This document shows positions 10,478-18,306 of a DNA stretch of 64,000 nucleotides, in pieces. Numbering within the stretch: the stretch's first letter is position 1; each line of letters opens with the position of its first letter. The stretch lies in assembly GCA_963716985.1 (NCBI GenBank), contig OY970323.1, positions 1,536,001 through 1,600,000 on the forward strand, given 5' to 3'. Made by a program: the position numbers and the translations under genes. Origin of the DNA: an uncultured bacterium (lineage in GTDB: Bacteria > Chlamydiota > Chlamydiia > Chlamydiales > SM23-39). The notes beneath the pieces are model-generated. The model saw only the letters and a program-made list of their open reading frames with translations, did no database searches and was not told the origin of the DNA.

Positions 10478-10939
10478 CTACGCTGCGGCTTTCCACCCTT
10501 TTGGGGTATCTTTGAAAAGTATCGTATTAGAGTTCAATTGATCTTCCAAATTGGCAATTTTCTTAAGAATTTCTGAGATTTTACCATGTTGATTAACGGT
10601 TTTTTCAGCGTAGAGCAACCTCACCAAAGACTCAGAAGATTTGGGTATATTGGTTTTACCATTTTCCCATCTCCGAATAGCTTGCTCGCTAACTCCCAAC
10701 AAAGAAGCTAAGATATTCTGAGACATCAACATTTCATGCCTAAGAAATCGTAGTTCATCTCCAGACAGATCCTTCTTCAAAGAAACAAGATGCATTCCTA
10801 TAGCGCGATGCAAGCCGTCAAGATCGTGGATAGAAACCGCCTCCCCTCTATCGGTTTTGATAATCTTATAACCATTAGCGAGGTAGATATTATCCAGTCC
10901 ACATTCTTTATACTGGTAAAAACTGTGGTCCATATTCAT
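10478..10939 (-). CDS. XRE-HTH antitoxin-like protein
   Basis: YQYKECGLDNIYLANGY N-terminus, ELRFLRHEMLMSQ..LA.LLGVS...IRRWENG HTH; downstream of DUF4258-like gene. Confidence 0.8.
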   Translation of the reverse strand: MNMDHSFYQYKECGLDNIYLANGYKIIKTDRGEAVSIHDLDGLHRAIGMHLVSLKKDLSGDELRFLRHEMLMSQNILASLLGVSEQAIRRWENGKTNIPKSSESLVRLLYAEKTVNQHGKISEILKKIANLEDQLNSNTILFKDTPKGWKAAA

Positions 10940-10944
10940 TCCTC

Positions 10945-11268
10945 CTATATTACGGTGATGACTTCTAAGTAATCCTTTTTAACGACCACAACTACCTGCA
11001 CCGATCTCCCTGCAGTATAACGTGATAGTTTAATTCTCCAATCACCATATTGGTCAAGACTCGGGCCGTCTATACCTTTTCCCGACCTTAACACATCAAA
11101 AACTTGACGCATCGTCACTTTTCTTTCTCTCATACGCTGCTGATTATGAGGGAAATCGAAAAAGACTCTACTCGAATCCTTTGCCATCTCATGCACCACC
11201 CTAACAAACTCCTCCAACGATTGAGGAAGCTCTTTTGGGGTTGGAAAAGAAAACGCTTCACTCATCAC
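10945..11268 (-). CDS. DUF4258-like putative toxin
   Basis: H.QQRMRERKVTMRQVFDVLRSG and C-terminal VITVI. Confidence 0.72.
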   Translation of the reverse strand: MMSEAFSFPTPKELPQSLEEFVRVVHEMAKDSSRVFFDFPHNQQRMRERKVTMRQVFDVLRSGKGIDGPSLDQYGDWRIKLSRYTAGRSVQVVVVVKKDYLEVITVI

Positions 11269-11750: not shown

Positions 11751-12683
11751 ATGACATCCTCCATTTCCTTTTTTTCTCCCCATCATCTTTCCTCCCTCTG
11801 GCATTTTTCCAGCGCCAAAGAAACGAGAAAGAAGGAGCTCGAGGAGCTTACAAAAAAAGTGGCGCATGACTGCTTCACTGAACTGAGCATAGCTCTTGCC
11901 ATTTGCGGTTTTTCCTGTCTTTTTGTCACATCCCTCTCCGCTATCGCAACCCTCTTGATTGCGACAACCTGCGTTGTGAGTTTCAACGCTCTTTTTCGCT
12001 TCGTTAAACTGCGCGCAACACTCAAGCTCGATAAAGAAGAGCGAATAGGCGCGCAAAAAACCATCTATCGAATGATGGGATGGAATTTTGCCTTTCTGGA
12101 TTCGGGGACAAGAGACATTTTGACCCATGAATTCGGCCATGCTTTTTTCAGCTCTCTCTTCTACAAAAACAGATCGCTAAGCGTTTCTCTTTTTCCTTTT
12201 ATGGGAGGAGTGACGAACTACTTCCCCGAAGCCTTAACGTTTGTCGGAAGCCTCGTTGGAGAAAACGCAGCAGAGCTCATTGTCTCTGCTGCAGGCCCCC
12301 TCACAACGCTCTTCTTTTCGCTCCTTACATTGACCATCGCCCACTTCGTAAAAGAAAGCCATCCACAGCTCAATCAATATTTAAACGCCTGCACTCTCTT
12401 GAGCCTAACGCAACAGATTTTTTATGCGCTTTCCGCTCTTGGGACACCCCTTGAAGAATTGAGTCATGATTTTGTCTATCTATGGGCCATGGGCGGCATC
12501 CACCCCCTAGCTGCCTGTCTTTTTATCTGCCTTGTGCCTTTGATCATAAAAATTATTGTCAGCCAAATCGCGCGGGAAGAGCAAACAGCTCCCTCTCTGA
12601 AGGAAAGAGCGCATCTCTTTTCTACTACCGGCACACTACTCAGAGCTGGTAGAGGAGTAGATCTCTCTACTCCCCCCCATTGA
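11751..12683 (+). CDS. Membrane metallopeptidase, M50-like; C-terminus reads into antisense intron sequence
   Basis: THEFGH zinc motif, SAAGP, HDF, several TM segments; last ~12 codons overlap intron domain VI on the opposite strand. Confidence 0.75.
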   Translation: MTSSISFFSPHHLSSLWHFSSAKETRKKELEELTKKVAHDCFTELSIALAICGFSCLFVTSLSAIATLLIATTCVVSFNALFRFVKLRATLKLDKEERIGAQKTIYRMMGWNFAFLDSGTRDILTHEFGHAFFSSLFYKNRSLSVSLFPFMGGVTNYFPEALTFVGSLVGENAAELIVSAAGPLTTLFFSLLTLTIAHFVKESHPQLNQYLNACTLLSLTQQIFYALSALGTPLEELSHDFVYLWAMGGIHPLAACLFICLVPLIIKIIVSQIAREEQTAPSLKERAHLFSTTGTLLRAGRGVDLSTPPH

Positions 12684-13276
12684 GAACCCGGCGTGCCCAA
12701 TTAAGGCAACGGGCTCCTGATACCATCCTTCACTTGACTCGATGGTTAAAACATTTTATGCACTATCTGGGCTTTCGGTAGAGGATGCGCTCTCATGAAC
12801 AGCACAAACTTTTCCCACGTAAAGCTCTTTCGCTGACTACGCCTGTTCAGCCATTTGTACATGATCTTGGTTGCCTCGCATAGAAACTGTTTTACCTGCA
12901 TTATGTTGTGAGAGACTCCGTAATATTGAACGTGCCCTCTCAGTTTCGCAATAAAGGTTTTCCATATTTCCTTGAGTAGCCTTTTATCCTTTTCCTGCCT
13001 GATCCATTCTTTGACTTTTTTTGAGTTTGGTTCGCATGGTTTTGGCTCTCGTTTTCAGTTTGGGTACTACCCATCCCGATCGAGACTTACTCCAGTAAAA
13101 CGTGAATCCCAGAAAATCAAAAGTCTCTTGTTTTACGCCTCTAGCTGCTGCTCTTTTATCAAAAGCGATCAGCTTCGTTTTCTCTTCGTTGAGTTGAAGT
13201 TTAAACTTTTCGAGCCGTTTCCCAAGAGTTTGTCGGATTCTTTGCGCATCTGCTTCTAATTCACAGCATATTACCG
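12644..13276 (-). mobile_element. Group II intron A, 3' part (RT6-7 and X coding region, DV, DVI); frameshifted and 5'-truncated
   Basis: DV GAGCCCGTTGCCTTAATTGGGCACGCCGGGTTC (12716-12684), then DVI hairpin; IEP VICCELEADAQR..EKTKLI..FDFLGFTF, then after an extra A near 13016-13022 LRGHVQYYGVSHN..WLNRRSQRKSFTW, stop 12746. Confidence 0.85.
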
Positions 13277-14277
13277 GTCGAGTAGCGCAGGGGAATCTCA
13301 CCCCCACGCTCTCACGGAACCGTACGGGAGCCTCTCGGCTCATACGGCTCTTATTATTCAGCCGCTGGGAGTACACCCAGTTGCCAGTGAGCAAACAGTT
13401 TGGGTTCTCGTTTTGCGATTTTACCCATCCAGTGTATTGCTCTCCGACTATGGCCTCTCAGTTTCTTGTATTTCCTCGTCGCCCACCTTGCTAGTGTACG
13501 GTTTACCCTTCTGAACGTTGGATACAACTCCGATTTATAGTATTTACCATAGTGGTTAATCCAACCTCTCATGATTGGATTGAACATCCTCGATAAATCT
13601 CCGAGTGTTTTGTCACTGCGCAGATGCATCCGCCAACTTCTCATCGTGCCCGCCATCTTCTTCTTCGCTTTATTACTCACTGCCGGACTGAAATTGACGA
13701 AGTACTTTCCATAACGATTTTTCGATCGTCTGGCTCTAAAAGTATACCCTAGAAAATCGAACTTTTCATTTGGGTATCTCTTTCTTCTATCGTCATCCTT
13801 GCAATAGACGATTTTCGTCTTCTCAGGATGTAATTCCAGTTTGCATTCCGCTAAGCGTTCTGCGATGGCGATCTTTATTTTGTTAGCTTCTGCCTCTGTT
13901 TTGCAATGTACCACTCCATCATCCGCATATCTTTCAAATGGATTTTGTGGATAATTCCTTTTCATCCATACGTCGAATGCATAGTGGAGAAAAAGGTTCG
14001 CCAATAGCGGGCTTATCACACCCCCTTGCGGCGTTCCTTTATCTCGGCCTATAAGCGCTCCTTCCGCATTTTGAGCTGGTGCTTTTAACCACCGCTCTAT
14101 GTACATCAGGATCCACTTACTATCGGTGTGTTTCTTCACAGCTTTCATCACGAGTTCGTGATCCAAATTGTCAAAGAACCCCTTGATATCCAGATCAATA
14201 ACATAGTTGTATCTCCAGCACCTTTCTCGTGCTTTCCCTACCGCTTCTATTGCTGATTTTCCGGGTCTATATCCAAA
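13277..14277 (-). mobile_element. Group II intron B (class D-like), 5'-truncated, nested in intron A
   Basis: DV GAGCCGTATGAGCCGAGAGGCTCCCGTACGGTTC (13350-13317), DVI ending CTACTCGAC at 13277. Confidence 0.9.
13354..14274 (-). pseudogene. Intron B reverse transcriptase/maturase, N-terminus missing
   Basis: GYRPGKSA, DLDIKGFFDN, GTPQGGVISPLLAN, RYADD, FDFLGY, NPIMRGWINHY; no endonuclease domain. Confidence 0.92.
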
Positions 14278-14407
14278 GGCTGAATTAGATAAGAATGAGT
14301 ATCAGCTGGGAAAAAAAGTAAGCAACGGGCTGATAAGACTGGTAAATATTGCTTATCGCAAGAGTGATGAAAAGTGGAATTATACGATCATTCCACGCCA
14401 CATATGA
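14276..14407 (+). pseudogene. ISAzo13-like transposase C-terminal remnant
   Basis: KAELDKNEYQLGKKVS...EKWNYTIIP resembles the ISAzo13 family C-terminus. Confidence 0.65.
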
Positions 14408-14458
14408 GTCGCGGACGAATTTTTTTTCGAAAAATGGGCAAAGAGAATACTAAAATAT

Positions 14459-15504
14459 ACGCGATGTGCGAGTTTTTCAAAGCAAAAAATCACACGTAAA
14501 AAAATAATTGAAAAATGACAAGTCCTTACTGCACACTGTTTTGCGACAAAACAACAACAGGAGTTCAGGACATGTCGATTGATGATTTTATCATAACCAC
14601 CTTTTGTTTGATAGATGATGAGATGAAGAAGGTTCTTGCAGACGAGAAATTTCGTCAAAGAGGTCCCTCGCCTAGATTGAAAGACAGCGAGGTTATTACG
14701 ATGGAGGTCGTTGGAGAATTTTTTGGAATGGACCGTGACAAAACCATTTGGGAATATTTCAAAAGGCACTGGTTGCATTTCTTTCCAAATATTCCTGCAC
14801 GTTCGAATTTTGTCAGGCAAGCGGCCAACCTTCATGTAGTAAAGCGATTGTTACAAGAGAGTTTAGCAACTGACCTACATGCTCTTTCTGATTCATTGCA
14901 CATAATAGACGGGCTTCCTATTCCAGTTTGCAAATTTGCCAGAGCTCACTTTAGCAAAAATTTCAAGGGCGACGCTGCATATGGATATTGTGCTACAAAA
15001 AAAGAGCACTTTTATGGTTTTCGAGGCCATGTTGTCATCAGTTCAATAGGGGTGGTGACAGCAGCTACATTCGCCAAGGCAAACATTGATGAGCGCGATG
15101 TGTGTCCTGAGATTGTGGAAAAAATCGGAGGGCTTTTGTTGGGAGACAAAGGTTTTATACGACCTGGATTGAAAGAGTTGCTCAAAAAACAAGGGTTGTA
15201 CTTGCAAACTTCGCTGAGAGAAAATATGAAAGATGAAAGACCGAAGAAATTTTTGAAATGGCTGGTAGGGACTCGGCGACTGGTTGAAACAGTTATAGGG
15301 CAGCTCAATGATAGATTTCGGATTGAAAAAGTATGGGCGCGAGATTTATGGCATCAATTTTCAAGATTTTGGAGAAAATTACTGGCGCATACTGTCGGCA
15401 TTAAACTTAATGTAAACGCAGGGAACGAGCCTTTACAGTTTGACCAGTTGCTTTGTTCTTAAAAGCATAGGCGATTTTTCGCTTTATAAACTCGCACATC
15501 GCGT
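14459..15504 (+). mobile_element. IS982-family element, apparently intact
   Basis: 17-bp perfect IR ACGCGATGTGCGAGTTT; 7-bp target duplication AAAATAT (14452-14458, 15505-15511). Confidence 0.93.
14572..15462 (+). CDS. IS982-family transposase
   Basis: DSEVIT, IIDGLPIPVC, FYGFRGH, GDKGF, RRLVETVIGQL. Confidence 0.93.
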   Translation: MSIDDFIITTFCLIDDEMKKVLADEKFRQRGPSPRLKDSEVITMEVVGEFFGMDRDKTIWEYFKRHWLHFFPNIPARSNFVRQAANLHVVKRLLQESLATDLHALSDSLHIIDGLPIPVCKFARAHFSKNFKGDAAYGYCATKKEHFYGFRGHVVISSIGVVTAATFAKANIDERDVCPEIVEKIGGLLLGDKGFIRPGLKELLKKQGLYLQTSLRENMKDERPKKFLKWLVGTRRLVETVIGQLNDRFRIEKVWARDLWHQFSRFWRKLLAHTVGIKLNVNAGNEPLQFDQLLCS

Positions 15505-16581: not shown

Positions 16582-17188
16582 GTAACTTCTCAAAAAGATC
16601 TTGTAACTAGCTAAGGACCAGATGGTAAAACTCGAGATTTTTGATCAATAAGATCTTTCAGGCGAGGAATTCCCTTTGCATTTAAAAGCCTATCTTTCAA
16701 ATAGTCACAAAAACTTACACCTAATTTCATGCAGGTTTTCTTGAGACTGGCAAAGGCGTCTCTTGCTTTGCGGCCAGCTTCACTCCGTGTGCTACCTGAG
16801 ATTTTTCTTCGCTTCGCATATTCACGGATATCCCTTTCGCAGTCATTGTTGTGCAGAGGAATGAACGGATACTGAAGAATAAGCAAGAGCCCTTCTCTTC
16901 TTGATCGAGTATTTGCAAGGAGTGAATTTAGAGCCGCACTTCTATATGCTTTGCCAAAAATTTGATCGAATTTTTCTGATAGCTTTTTCTGCAGAAGAAG
17001 GGTCGGATTTTTCTTATATTTTTTCAGTGCTTCATAGAAATCCCAAATATCCGCACGAACTATTTCGATCTCTGTTTTCTCAGCATCTGACAGAGGAATT
17101 AGTTTTCGATAAAGGCGTTCTTCATGGACCCAGCAGAGTCCATTTAGCAAGATGGCAAATTGTCTAGCAGCATCACTTATCGTAATTA
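16582..17188 (-). mobile_element. IS66-family remnant (3' end of transposase plus one IR)
   Basis: Terminal GTAACTTCTCAAAAAG resembles the 29117 copy; ISDAARQF..LCWVH..PLHNNDCERDIRE; cut off at the IS630. Confidence 0.88.
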
Positions 17189-18306
17189 TTAACCCGACAG
17201 GCAAATAAGAGACTCAAGCAGCGTACTTAACCGCTGAAGCTCGAAACAAATTTCGGATCGTCTCTGGTTCTTTTTGCAGCTTGGCGAGAGTCGAATGCAA
17301 ATGCCCCGATAGTTCCTTCTGATTTCTTGACATCTTTTTCCGATGAGTTCTCCCCTTCACCGTGTTGTTCAGATACTCATCTGGGTTATATTCAGGAGCG
17401 TAGGGAGGAAGAAAAAACAACTCGATTTCATCTTTATGCTTGTTTACCCAGGACTGAACTTTCTTTCCATGATGCACCTTCAGGTTGTCTAGGATCAAAA
17501 ATATCTTTCTGTCTTGGCCTTTGATCAGTCTTCGTAAAAATTTCAGAAAAATTGCAATGTTCATGCCCCCTTCGTAAACCATGAATCGAAGATCTCCTCG
17601 ATTTGTTACGGTTGAGATCATGCTCACTGAAAATCGTTTTCCTTTCTGATTGAGAACAGGAGTTTTTCCCTTCGGCGCATAACTCTTGCCTACCTGGCAA
17701 GTGGAACATACTCTGGCTTCATCCCCCCATTGTATTTCAGCGTTTTCCACTTTTGCGCGAGAGGAAATGGACGGATATTCTTCGTTGAGCCATTTCTCTA
17801 TTCGTTGTGGCTGTCGCTCATAGAAGCGCCCTAAGGGTTTTTGAGCCGTATCGCCCCATGCGCGCAAGTAAGCACCGACCGTGGATTTAGCTAATTTGAT
17901 CCCAAAGCAATGTTGAATGAGATGCTGCACAGACTGCCGAGTCCAAAGTACGAACGACATTTTGAGTTGTTCGGGACATTTATCCGTGATGAATCTTTGA
18001 ATGATTTTGCAGTGAAGAGCCGATAATTTCGCCTGATCTCCGGAGCGCCGGCCTCGACGCTTTTTTTTAAGCCCCGATTCTCCCTTTGTGCGATAAGCAG
18101 TTATCCATCGATAAACCGAAGTTCTTAGCACTCCCAGAGCCTGAGCTGCTTCTTTCACAGGCTTACGATCTACAACGACCATTTTGATGGCACGTCTGCG
18201 AAGAGCTTCCTGTGTGTCTTGACCTAATTTTCTCCTATCGCCTAATTGCATGAAGAATTGCTAACACACTCTTCAATTTTTGTCTCTTATTTGTTTAGCG
18301 GGTTAA
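17189..18306 (-). mobile_element. IS630-family element
   Basis: Imperfect IRs TTAACCCGacaggCAAATAAGAGAC / TTAACCCGctaaaCAAATAAGAGAC flanked by TA on both sides. Confidence 0.9.
17214..18251 (-). CDS. IS630-family transposase
   Basis: N-terminal HTH, WGDE, LILDNLKVH, LPPYAPEYNPDE. Confidence 0.93.
   Translation of the reverse strand: MQLGDRRKLGQDTQEALRRRAIKMVVVDRKPVKEAAQALGVLRTSVYRWITAYRTKGESGLKKKRRGRRSGDQAKLSALHCKIIQRFITDKCPEQLKMSFVLWTRQSVQHLIQHCFGIKLAKSTVGAYLRAWGDTAQKPLGRFYERQPQRIEKWLNEEYPSISSRAKVENAEIQWGDEARVCSTCQVGKSYAPKGKTPVLNQKGKRFSVSMISTVTNRGDLRFMVYEGGMNIAIFLKFLRRLIKGQDRKIFLILDNLKVHHGKKVQSWVNKHKDEIELFFLPPYAPEYNPDEYLNNTVKGRTHRKKMSRNQKELSGHLHSTLAKLQKEPETIRNLFRASAVKYAA

Follow-up and report, generated by a model that had tools for sequence, protein, structure and literature searches.

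A putative decayed group II twintron in a chlamydia-like bacterium and the insertion sites of its inner intron's relatives

Two truncated group II introns in tandem

The 64,000-nt stretch of DNA analyzed here (the window; positions 1,536,001-1,600,000 of contig OY970323.1, assembly GCA_963716985.1, from an uncultured SM23-39 chlamydia-like bacterium) contains the 3' remnants of two different group II introns lying in tandem on the minus strand (Table 1; coordinates without a genome label are window positions). The upstream remnant, intron B, ends with its last base directly against reverse transcriptase (RT) sequence belonging to the downstream remnant, intron A. Judging from the sequences of this locus and its relatives, we put at roughly 90% the probability that B, an endonuclease-less intron of the kind that homes to the RYADD-coding stretch of RT genes, entered the RT gene of a resident intron of another class, A, by retrohoming, and that the resulting twintron later decayed. 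An original prediction, made from the sequence of the window alone, had placed two different ends consisting of domains V and VI (DV/DVI) and two RT/maturase C-termini in tandem here, and Rfam, Pfam and an alignment to an intron in genome G008 all agree with that description.

Comparison of the B remnant with a full-length, 1872-nt intron in genome G192 showed 77% identity over 1001 nt (blastn, subject positions 874-1872). The remnant thus starts at intron position 874 of 1872. It encodes the RT from near residue 114 up to the stop codon, with the X/maturase domain, and ends in DV/DVI; lost are the ribozyme domains I-III along with ~113 codons at the start of the RT. Its truncated open reading frame (ORF), 80% identical in amino acids to the RTs of the G192 copies, encodes the peptide RYADDGVVHC and matches the Pfam families RVT_1 (38-205 of 205, E 1.4e-32) and GIIM (E 6.6e-14). 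Pfam gave only these two domains and no DNA-binding or endonuclease domain in this ORF, and there is no room for a further domain because GIIM reaches residue 284 of 312. The DV/DVI of B, the only Rfam match above the gathering score in the window, ends at the last base of the intron, 13277, where the minus strand reads ...CUACUCGAC (also written ...CGCUACUCGAC), with CTACTCGAC as the 3' end. B therefore carries the features by which group II introns are recognized, namely a DV/DVI end and an ORF with RVT_1 and GIIM in domain IV. A complete ribozyme with a 5' GUGYG and domains I-IV is present in neither B nor A, both of which are fragments.

What remains of intron A begins in its RT, at the residue that follows YADD, and continues through the X/maturase domain to DV/DVI; nothing is left on the 5' side of the junction with B. 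A +1 frameshift in a run of A residues breaks its maturase domain; the RT frame runs into a stop at 12984, and GIIM lies in a different frame. Its RT tail (12987-13274) matches RVT_1 157-205 with 27.4 bits, just below the 29.6 cut-off, and the shifted frame (12749-13042) matches GIIM with 21.7 bits, below the cut-off of 23. Although the DV/DVI, RVT_1 and GIIM signals of A all lie below the curated cut-offs, the remnant is homologous to a full-length intron of G008 (same family), with 75% identity over 626 nt (E 7.8e-117) and a conserved DV/DVI; the 437-aa RT of this G008 intron reads ...LFRYADDGVICCQYEADAVRIRQTLGKRLEKFKLQLNEEKTKL... Host intron A differs from B in RT class.

Beyond the 3' end of A, positions 11751-12683 of the plus strand encode a membrane protein of 310 aa that matches Peptidase_M50 weakly (19.9 bits, below the cut-off). 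Its frame extends 40 nt into the antisense 3' end of the intron, and its original C-terminus may have been replaced through intron insertion.

Table 1. Intron remnants, their junction and the adjoining insertion-sequence (IS) features in the window
Feature	Position	Strand	Basis and details
Intron A 3' remnant	12644..13276	-	633 nt; homology to full-length A-type intron in G008
DV/DVI of A, weak Rfam match	12644..12718	-	RF00029, 22.2 bits against a gathering score of 40, E 0.39 (5-kb search)
Junction of B 3' end and A RT	13276..13277	-	Alignment to G008; RVT_1 position; public contigs
Intron B 3' remnant	13277..14277	-	blastn against full-length G192 intron; RT amino acid identity; Pfam
DV/DVI of B	13277..13352	-	RF00029, 58.2 bits, E 7.7e-09, model 1-77 of 77
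Truncated RT/maturase ORF of B	13354..14292	-	312 codons, no stop, no start (open frame 315 aa)
ISAzo13-type transposase, C-terminal 42 residues	14279..14404	+	DDE_Tnp_ISAZ013 270-308 of 308, E 0.0004
Complete 1,048-bp IS	14457..15504	+	Pfam; DDE_Tnp_1_3 transposase at 14515-15462

The junction and its assembly support

The position of the junction relative to the catalytic codons of A was read from the uninterrupted A-type intron of G008. On the minus strand, the window reads ...CGCTACTCGAC up to 13277 and CGGTAATATGCTGTGAA from 13276 onward. The letters directly after the last base of B, CG GTA ATA TGC TGT GAA, encode x-VICCE and open the peptide x-VICCELEADAQRIRQ, whereas the uninterrupted G008 gene reads CGC TAT GCG GAT GAT G/GA GTA ATA TGC, encoding RYADD-G-VICC(Q), where the slash marks the corresponding position. 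Set side by side, CTACTCGAC/CGGTAATATGC in the window faces TATGCGGATGATG/GAGTAATATGC in G008, the YADD-site stretch of the A-type RT being CGCTATGCGGATGATG/GA. The homology of A to G008 begins at GTA, 2 nt past the junction, and the junction therefore falls 1 nt after the YADD codons. These comparisons uphold both the coordinates and letters given in the original prediction and its proposal that the insertion lies about 1 nt past YADD. The 3' exon of B is thus RT sequence from directly past YADD (the A stretch GTAATATGCTGT), as expected of the RYADD-homing lineage. The A tail opens at RVT_1 position 157, and the hosts of B's relatives are split likewise: position 155 is the last one matched in both of the 5' exons tested, and 157 is the first in one 3' exon.

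An obvious concern is that the join is an artefact, produced by misassembly or a chimeric contig that brought together two separate intron fragments. Repeated mobile elements often cause misjoins, and the genome holds 16 GIIM and 16 DV/DVI matches. However, neither fragment has a second copy in the genome with which it could be confused. Each remnant matches only itself in the single 2.07-Mb contig, apart from 60-142-nt stretches of B that occur at 66-82% identity in three other intron fragments, none of which is followed by RT sequence. Moreover, public contigs with 0 differences cross 13276/13277 in three runs from two studies (X1, 13082-13324; X2, 13069-13378; X4, 13138-13379), and one contig from one run crosses the 5' break of B (14225-14424), although runs X1-X4 cover the 2.3-kb stretch in short pieces only and no contig spans the whole. 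Because identical contigs bridge both the B/A join and the B break, a misjoin is very unlikely, and the refutation by misassembly that the original prediction had allowed for can be set aside. The same architecture also recurs in relatives L081, L112 and L171, in which the 3' end of an inner intron is followed by post-YADD RT sequence and by an outer DV/DVI ~650 nt downstream. Taken together, we regard an artefact as hardly credible.

Relatives of intron B, their targets and base pairing

We searched 401 genomes of the phylum, where 17 of the 400 that were scored carried B-type RTs, and scanned species genomes, which yielded 599 relatives of the B RT and 79 loci kept. In total, 107 loci were fetched (28 from the phylum search and 79 from the scan), and intron ends were located by nhmmer with profiles built from the 130 nt at the 5' end and the 95 nt at the 3' end. 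The best relatives in the phylum, at 80% identity each, were found in G192 (five copies) and G104 (one copy) and encode RTs of 425 aa; most full relatives are 1864-1944 nt long. Some relatives carry the labels Simkaniaceae and Neochlamydia, on which the description of the source genome as chlamydia-like in part rests.

Analysis of the flanks showed that many of these introns lie at the same position in RT genes. For 27 of the 58 loci with a resolved 5' end (26 distinct flanks), the 5' exon ends in [YF]xDD plus 1 nt directly before GUGYGCC, the YADD-coding target having the form ...TAYGCNGAYGAY plus 1 nt ahead of GUGYG in many phyla. Two of the 58 end in K[YF]xDH and the other 29 have other ends. 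Among the 43 loci known by their 3' end only, at least 12 run on into RT sequence (by eye), such as xNIYVRSERAA or xVLGFQYESDAIRF, the latter being the A-type-like 3' exon in G240. Close relatives follow the same pattern: the G192 copy L081 lies after WCRYADD, the G104 copy after CRYSDD and the G185 copy after IRYQDD. Of six named plasmids examined, four carry the intron after RYADD, namely S. meliloti pMl3, Alkalihalophilus pseudofirmus pBpOF4-01, Vibrio parahaemolyticus pVPH2 and a Rickettsia endosymbiont plasmid. RT-gene insertions were seen in Acidobacteriota, Chloroflexota, Planctomycetota, Bdellovibrionota, Bacillota and Alpha- and Gammaproteobacteria, and also in obligate intracellular Chlamydiae, Rickettsia and Holosporaceae. 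Most of the hosts are themselves group II introns, with GIIM found in six of seven host 3' exons tested. The proposals that B homes to conserved RT sequence and parasitizes other introns therefore both gain support from the relatives. The full copies of A and B that the original prediction hoped for were found in relatives (A-type in G008, B-type in G192) and are lacking in the same genome.

The insertion sites also bear on whether B could have reached A by chance, or by recombination at similar YADD-coding stretches of the two introns, without site-specific homing. The sequence TATGCGGATGATG does occur in the B ORF as well, providing a short identical stretch common to both introns. Recombination there, however, would fuse the B RT upstream of YADD to the A RT downstream, and here it is the terminal base of B domain VI that is joined to A. 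The join lies, moreover, at the exact base used by 27 independent relatives, making either event highly improbable compared with homing of B to this site.

In two plasmid loci, L168 (S. meliloti pMl3, 645-2624) and L172 (the Rickettsia endosymbiont plasmid, 628-2652), introns lie head to tail, the last base of one being followed directly by the GUGUGCC of a second copy. Such tandems would be expected where a second copy has homed to an occupied site whose 5' exon is still intact.

The specificity of these insertions is consistent with base pairing between intron and target. In the aligned domain I of the relatives, two short loop sequences are conspicuous: GCGUA, after UCGAAA, and ~30 nt farther downstream NGUCGUU, in the loop of a hairpin. 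The former, as exon-binding site 2 (EBS2), is complementary to TAYGC at -13 to -9 of the 5' exon, and the latter, as EBS1, to GAYGAYN at -7 to -1; the DNA paired in this way encodes Y-A-D-D and extends by one base into the following codon. Both synonymous codons would be tolerated because a G faces each Y position. Across 47 unique intron/exon rows, 462 of 564 cells were paired, against 327 on average and 372 at most when exons were permuted among rows (2000 permutations), and in the 24 rows with an EBS1 other than NGUCGUU the count was 202 of 288 (permuted mean 127, maximum 163); the permutations overstate the significance because the rows are related. Compensatory changes were found at both sites. 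EBS2 GAGUA occurs with TATTC (YSDD) and EBS2 UGGUA with TATCA (YQDD), while EBS1 CUUAGUU occurs with GACTAAG in four G192 copies and in Neochlamydia pS13, EBS1 UAUAUUG with CAATATA, and EBS1 AGUGGUU or GGUGGUU with GATCATC or GACCACT. The base at -1 forms a Watson-Crick pair with the first base of EBS1 in 19 of 26 YxDD rows, with three pair types (by eye). Complementarity and covariation in the relatives thus bear out the anticipated pairing of EBS1 and EBS2 with the YADD code.

Several branches of the family have other targets. Four copies in G192 (L059, L075, L085 and L087) and one on plasmid pS13 of Neochlamydia sp. S13 (L167) have EBS1 CUUAGUU and EBS2 GCAUA; they are sisters of the YADD-site copy L081 whose own sites, TATGCAGACTAAG-like, do not lie in RT genes. 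In G192 this looks like a recent target change within one genome. A sub-branch (L122:1405-4954, L154:1916-4903 and L143-L145) lies in IS66-family transposase genes, the hosts matching DDE_Tnp_IS66 and zf-IS66 (Pfam). Its site is after K(Y/F)xDH plus 1 nt and before LPLYRQ, the site DNA resembles the YADD code, and a C-to-G change in EBS1 pairs with GATCAT or GACCAC. Two further introns, L079 (G185:C16) and L102 (Legionella norrlandica), with 76% and 72% RT identity to B, respectively, are inserted after RYQDD in RTs unlike group II maturases in look, and their EBS2 is UGGUA, not GCGUA, matching TATCA. We found no paper describing IS66 as a group II intron homing site, which is weak evidence of absence given our limited literature coverage; retargeting to IS66 and to YQDD, for which no literature search was made, may be undescribed. 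It is conceivable, though doubtful, that B's relatives form a cosmopolitan clade of retroelement hyperparasites that repeatedly escape their niche through one- or two-base compensatory changes in EBS1 and EBS2 (YQDD, YSDD, GACTAAG and IS66).

History of the locus and relation to known introns

We propose that the RNA of intron B reverse-spliced into the A gene one base past the YADD codons. Synthesis of cDNA would have been primed at a replication fork because the B-type RT lacks an endonuclease; such priming has been proposed for the RYADD lineage and shown for RmInt1-type introns. A later, IS-associated deletion would then have removed the 5' ~870 nt of B (domains I-III and the start of the RT) and everything of A upstream, including the YADD codons. 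In the simplest history, B inserted into A and an IS-linked deletion came afterwards.

The surroundings of the B break are in keeping with such a deletion. The tail of an ISAzo13-type transposase, recognized by a DDE_Tnp_ISAZ013 match of 19.9 bits (below the 26.9 cut-off), adjoins the 5' break of B (~14277) on the opposite strand. Because it directly abuts the break, this tail would mark the rearrangement that removed the 5' part of B. The complete 1,048-bp IS beyond it, present in eight genome copies of 99.8-100% identity, lies outside the twintron in the same mobile-element debris. Just past this IS, at 16611-18251 on the minus strand, are further transposase-like ORFs of 197 and 345 aa, and the region from 12.6 to 18.3 kb is a heap of mobile-element remains. 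With both 5' splice sites absent and A frameshifted, the locus is not a functional twintron in which both introns are complete and the outer ORF can be restored. By its sequence this copy appears dead, with nothing here able to splice or move any more.

Alternatively, B could have been truncated at its 5' end on insertion, through abortive reverse transcription, with the 5' part of A lost only later and no IS-linked deletion. Copies truncated at the 5' end are a known outcome of retroelement insertion, and several other intron 3' fragments, each no more than an end that contains DV/DVI, occur in the genome, at 329927-330012, 385087-385487 and 1915083-1915487. Such an insertion, however, should have left the 5' exon of A, ending in YADD, just upstream of B, where the opposite-strand transposase tail is found instead, and there is no A-type 5' half anywhere in the genome. 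Because the A 5' exon is absent, abortive insertion is the less likely course, and we consider it improbable beside homing of a B copy that was later cut back by deletion.

Several observations weigh against the view that B homed to the YADD codons of A. Domain I of B is deleted, making its own EBS1 and EBS2 unreadable, as is the A 5' exon with its YADD codons; the target of this copy (expected code TAYGCNGAYGAYN) is for these reasons inferred, and the caution of the original prediction on this point stands, the more so as the EBS of B is lost too. The CG directly past the junction differs from the GA of G008, a difference that is unremarkable given that the A copies are only 75% identical, and the boundary in CTACTCACC-type 3' ends might move by 1 nt. 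The contigs that bridge the junction may come from the sample behind the assembly and therefore test the assembly, not the biology. Among the relatives, the -1 base is mispaired in seven of the 26 YxDD rows, 29 of the 58 resolved loci are not at YxDD, and four of the five G192 copies lie outside RT genes. Only part of the clade thus has the habit of homing to RT genes. Finally, the likeness of B to the named introns B.th.I3, M.a.I5, UA.I3 and P.l.I2 is drawn from their published description.

These four introns were described by Tourasse and Kolsto (2008), citing Dai and Zimmerly (2003), as a lineage that uses the RYADD code as intron-binding sites 1 and 2 (IBS1 and IBS2) and forms twintrons (PMC2504315). 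They come from Bacillus thuringiensis (B.th.I3, which sits in an RT gene), Methanosarcina acetivorans (M.a.I5), an uncultured archaeon (UA.I3) and Photorhabdus luminescens (P.l.I2), share 58-67% nt identity over 1.8 kb, and are described there as having no endonuclease domain and probably using replication forks. The target given in that paper is AGGTATGCTGATGACT, and the consensus of B's relatives is CGN TAY GCN GAY GAY N. Like this lineage, the B family has an RT without an endonuclease domain, a length of ~1.8-1.9 kb and a nested position in group II RT genes and sometimes other RT genes; unlike it, B is here a dead 3' fragment in a chlamydia-like genome with a host of another RT class. The statement in the original prediction that nested introns are known in a few archaea and cyanobacteria was therefore too modest, since an RYADD-targeting lineage was named in 2008 (PMC2504315). 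Its idea of YADD homing is right but has been in print since then, and this locus is an ordinary, dead new example.

The pairing register of the B family is the same as that found experimentally for RmInt1, an endonuclease-less IIB intron of Sinorhizobium meliloti, with 7 bp of EBS1/IBS1 at -1 to -7 and 5 bp of EBS2/IBS2 at -9 to -13 (PMC4075523). The natural target of RmInt1, in ISRm2011-2, is a transposase gene with IBS1 GATGAGA and not an RT gene (PMC4075523). At the protein level, the B RT is 63% identical to that of an S. meliloti plasmid intron located after LIRYADD. Bacterial class D includes both RmInt1 and M.a.I5.

Nested introns have also been described in Thermosynechococcus elongatus, in which TeI3 lies in TeI4 (Mohr, Ghanem and Lambowitz 2010; PMC2882425). 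As proposed for B, the inner intron there homes to a conserved site in another intron and multiplies with it, but it is ORF-less and lies between the first two ATGs of the outer domain IV ORF (PMC2882425). The window does not hold a twintron of this type, as B encodes an RT and sits at YADD codons. In the nested arrays of M. acetivorans summarized by Zimmerly and Semper (2015), repeated site-specific homing into introns is offset by deletions, with no host gene reported in the flanks (PMC4424553). Those arrays are up to five deep with intact copies (PMC4424553), whereas there is one level here and both partners are truncated.

Other intron remains and a small gene pair were noted in the genome and window. 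Five copies of another group II intron (G000:C1 730538-731692, 756222-757376, 1122662-1123816, 1328493-1329647 and 1970473-1971627) encode a 486-aa RT that is identical in all five and has FCDD in place of YADD. Downstream of two copies lies one and the same IS200/IS605-like transposase sequence (HSRWDCKFHVVFIPKCR), and others precede different transposase-like frames. At G000:C1 751509-752584, a minus-strand RT fragment (RVT_1 37-135) nearly meets a plus-strand fragment of the same intron (RVT_1 130-205), an arrangement that suggests an inversion inside an intron ORF. Within the window, genes for a DUF4258 protein (107 aa) and an HTH_3/MqsA-like protein (153 aa) at 10478-11268 on the minus strand look like a toxin-antitoxin module.

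In sum, the reading proposed here would explain two tandem RT fragments in the window that might otherwise be annotated as pseudogenes of obscure history. That the YADD code, the most conserved stretch of RT genes, is a safe and ever-present landing site for group II introns is already in print. The survey adds the breadth of this habit and natural compensatory EBS/IBS changes that back base pairing without experiment, as well as target shifts to IS66 transposase genes and YQDD-type RT genes that are possible natural examples of retargeting. Only the breadth of the lineage and the YQDD and IS66 retargeting might be new.

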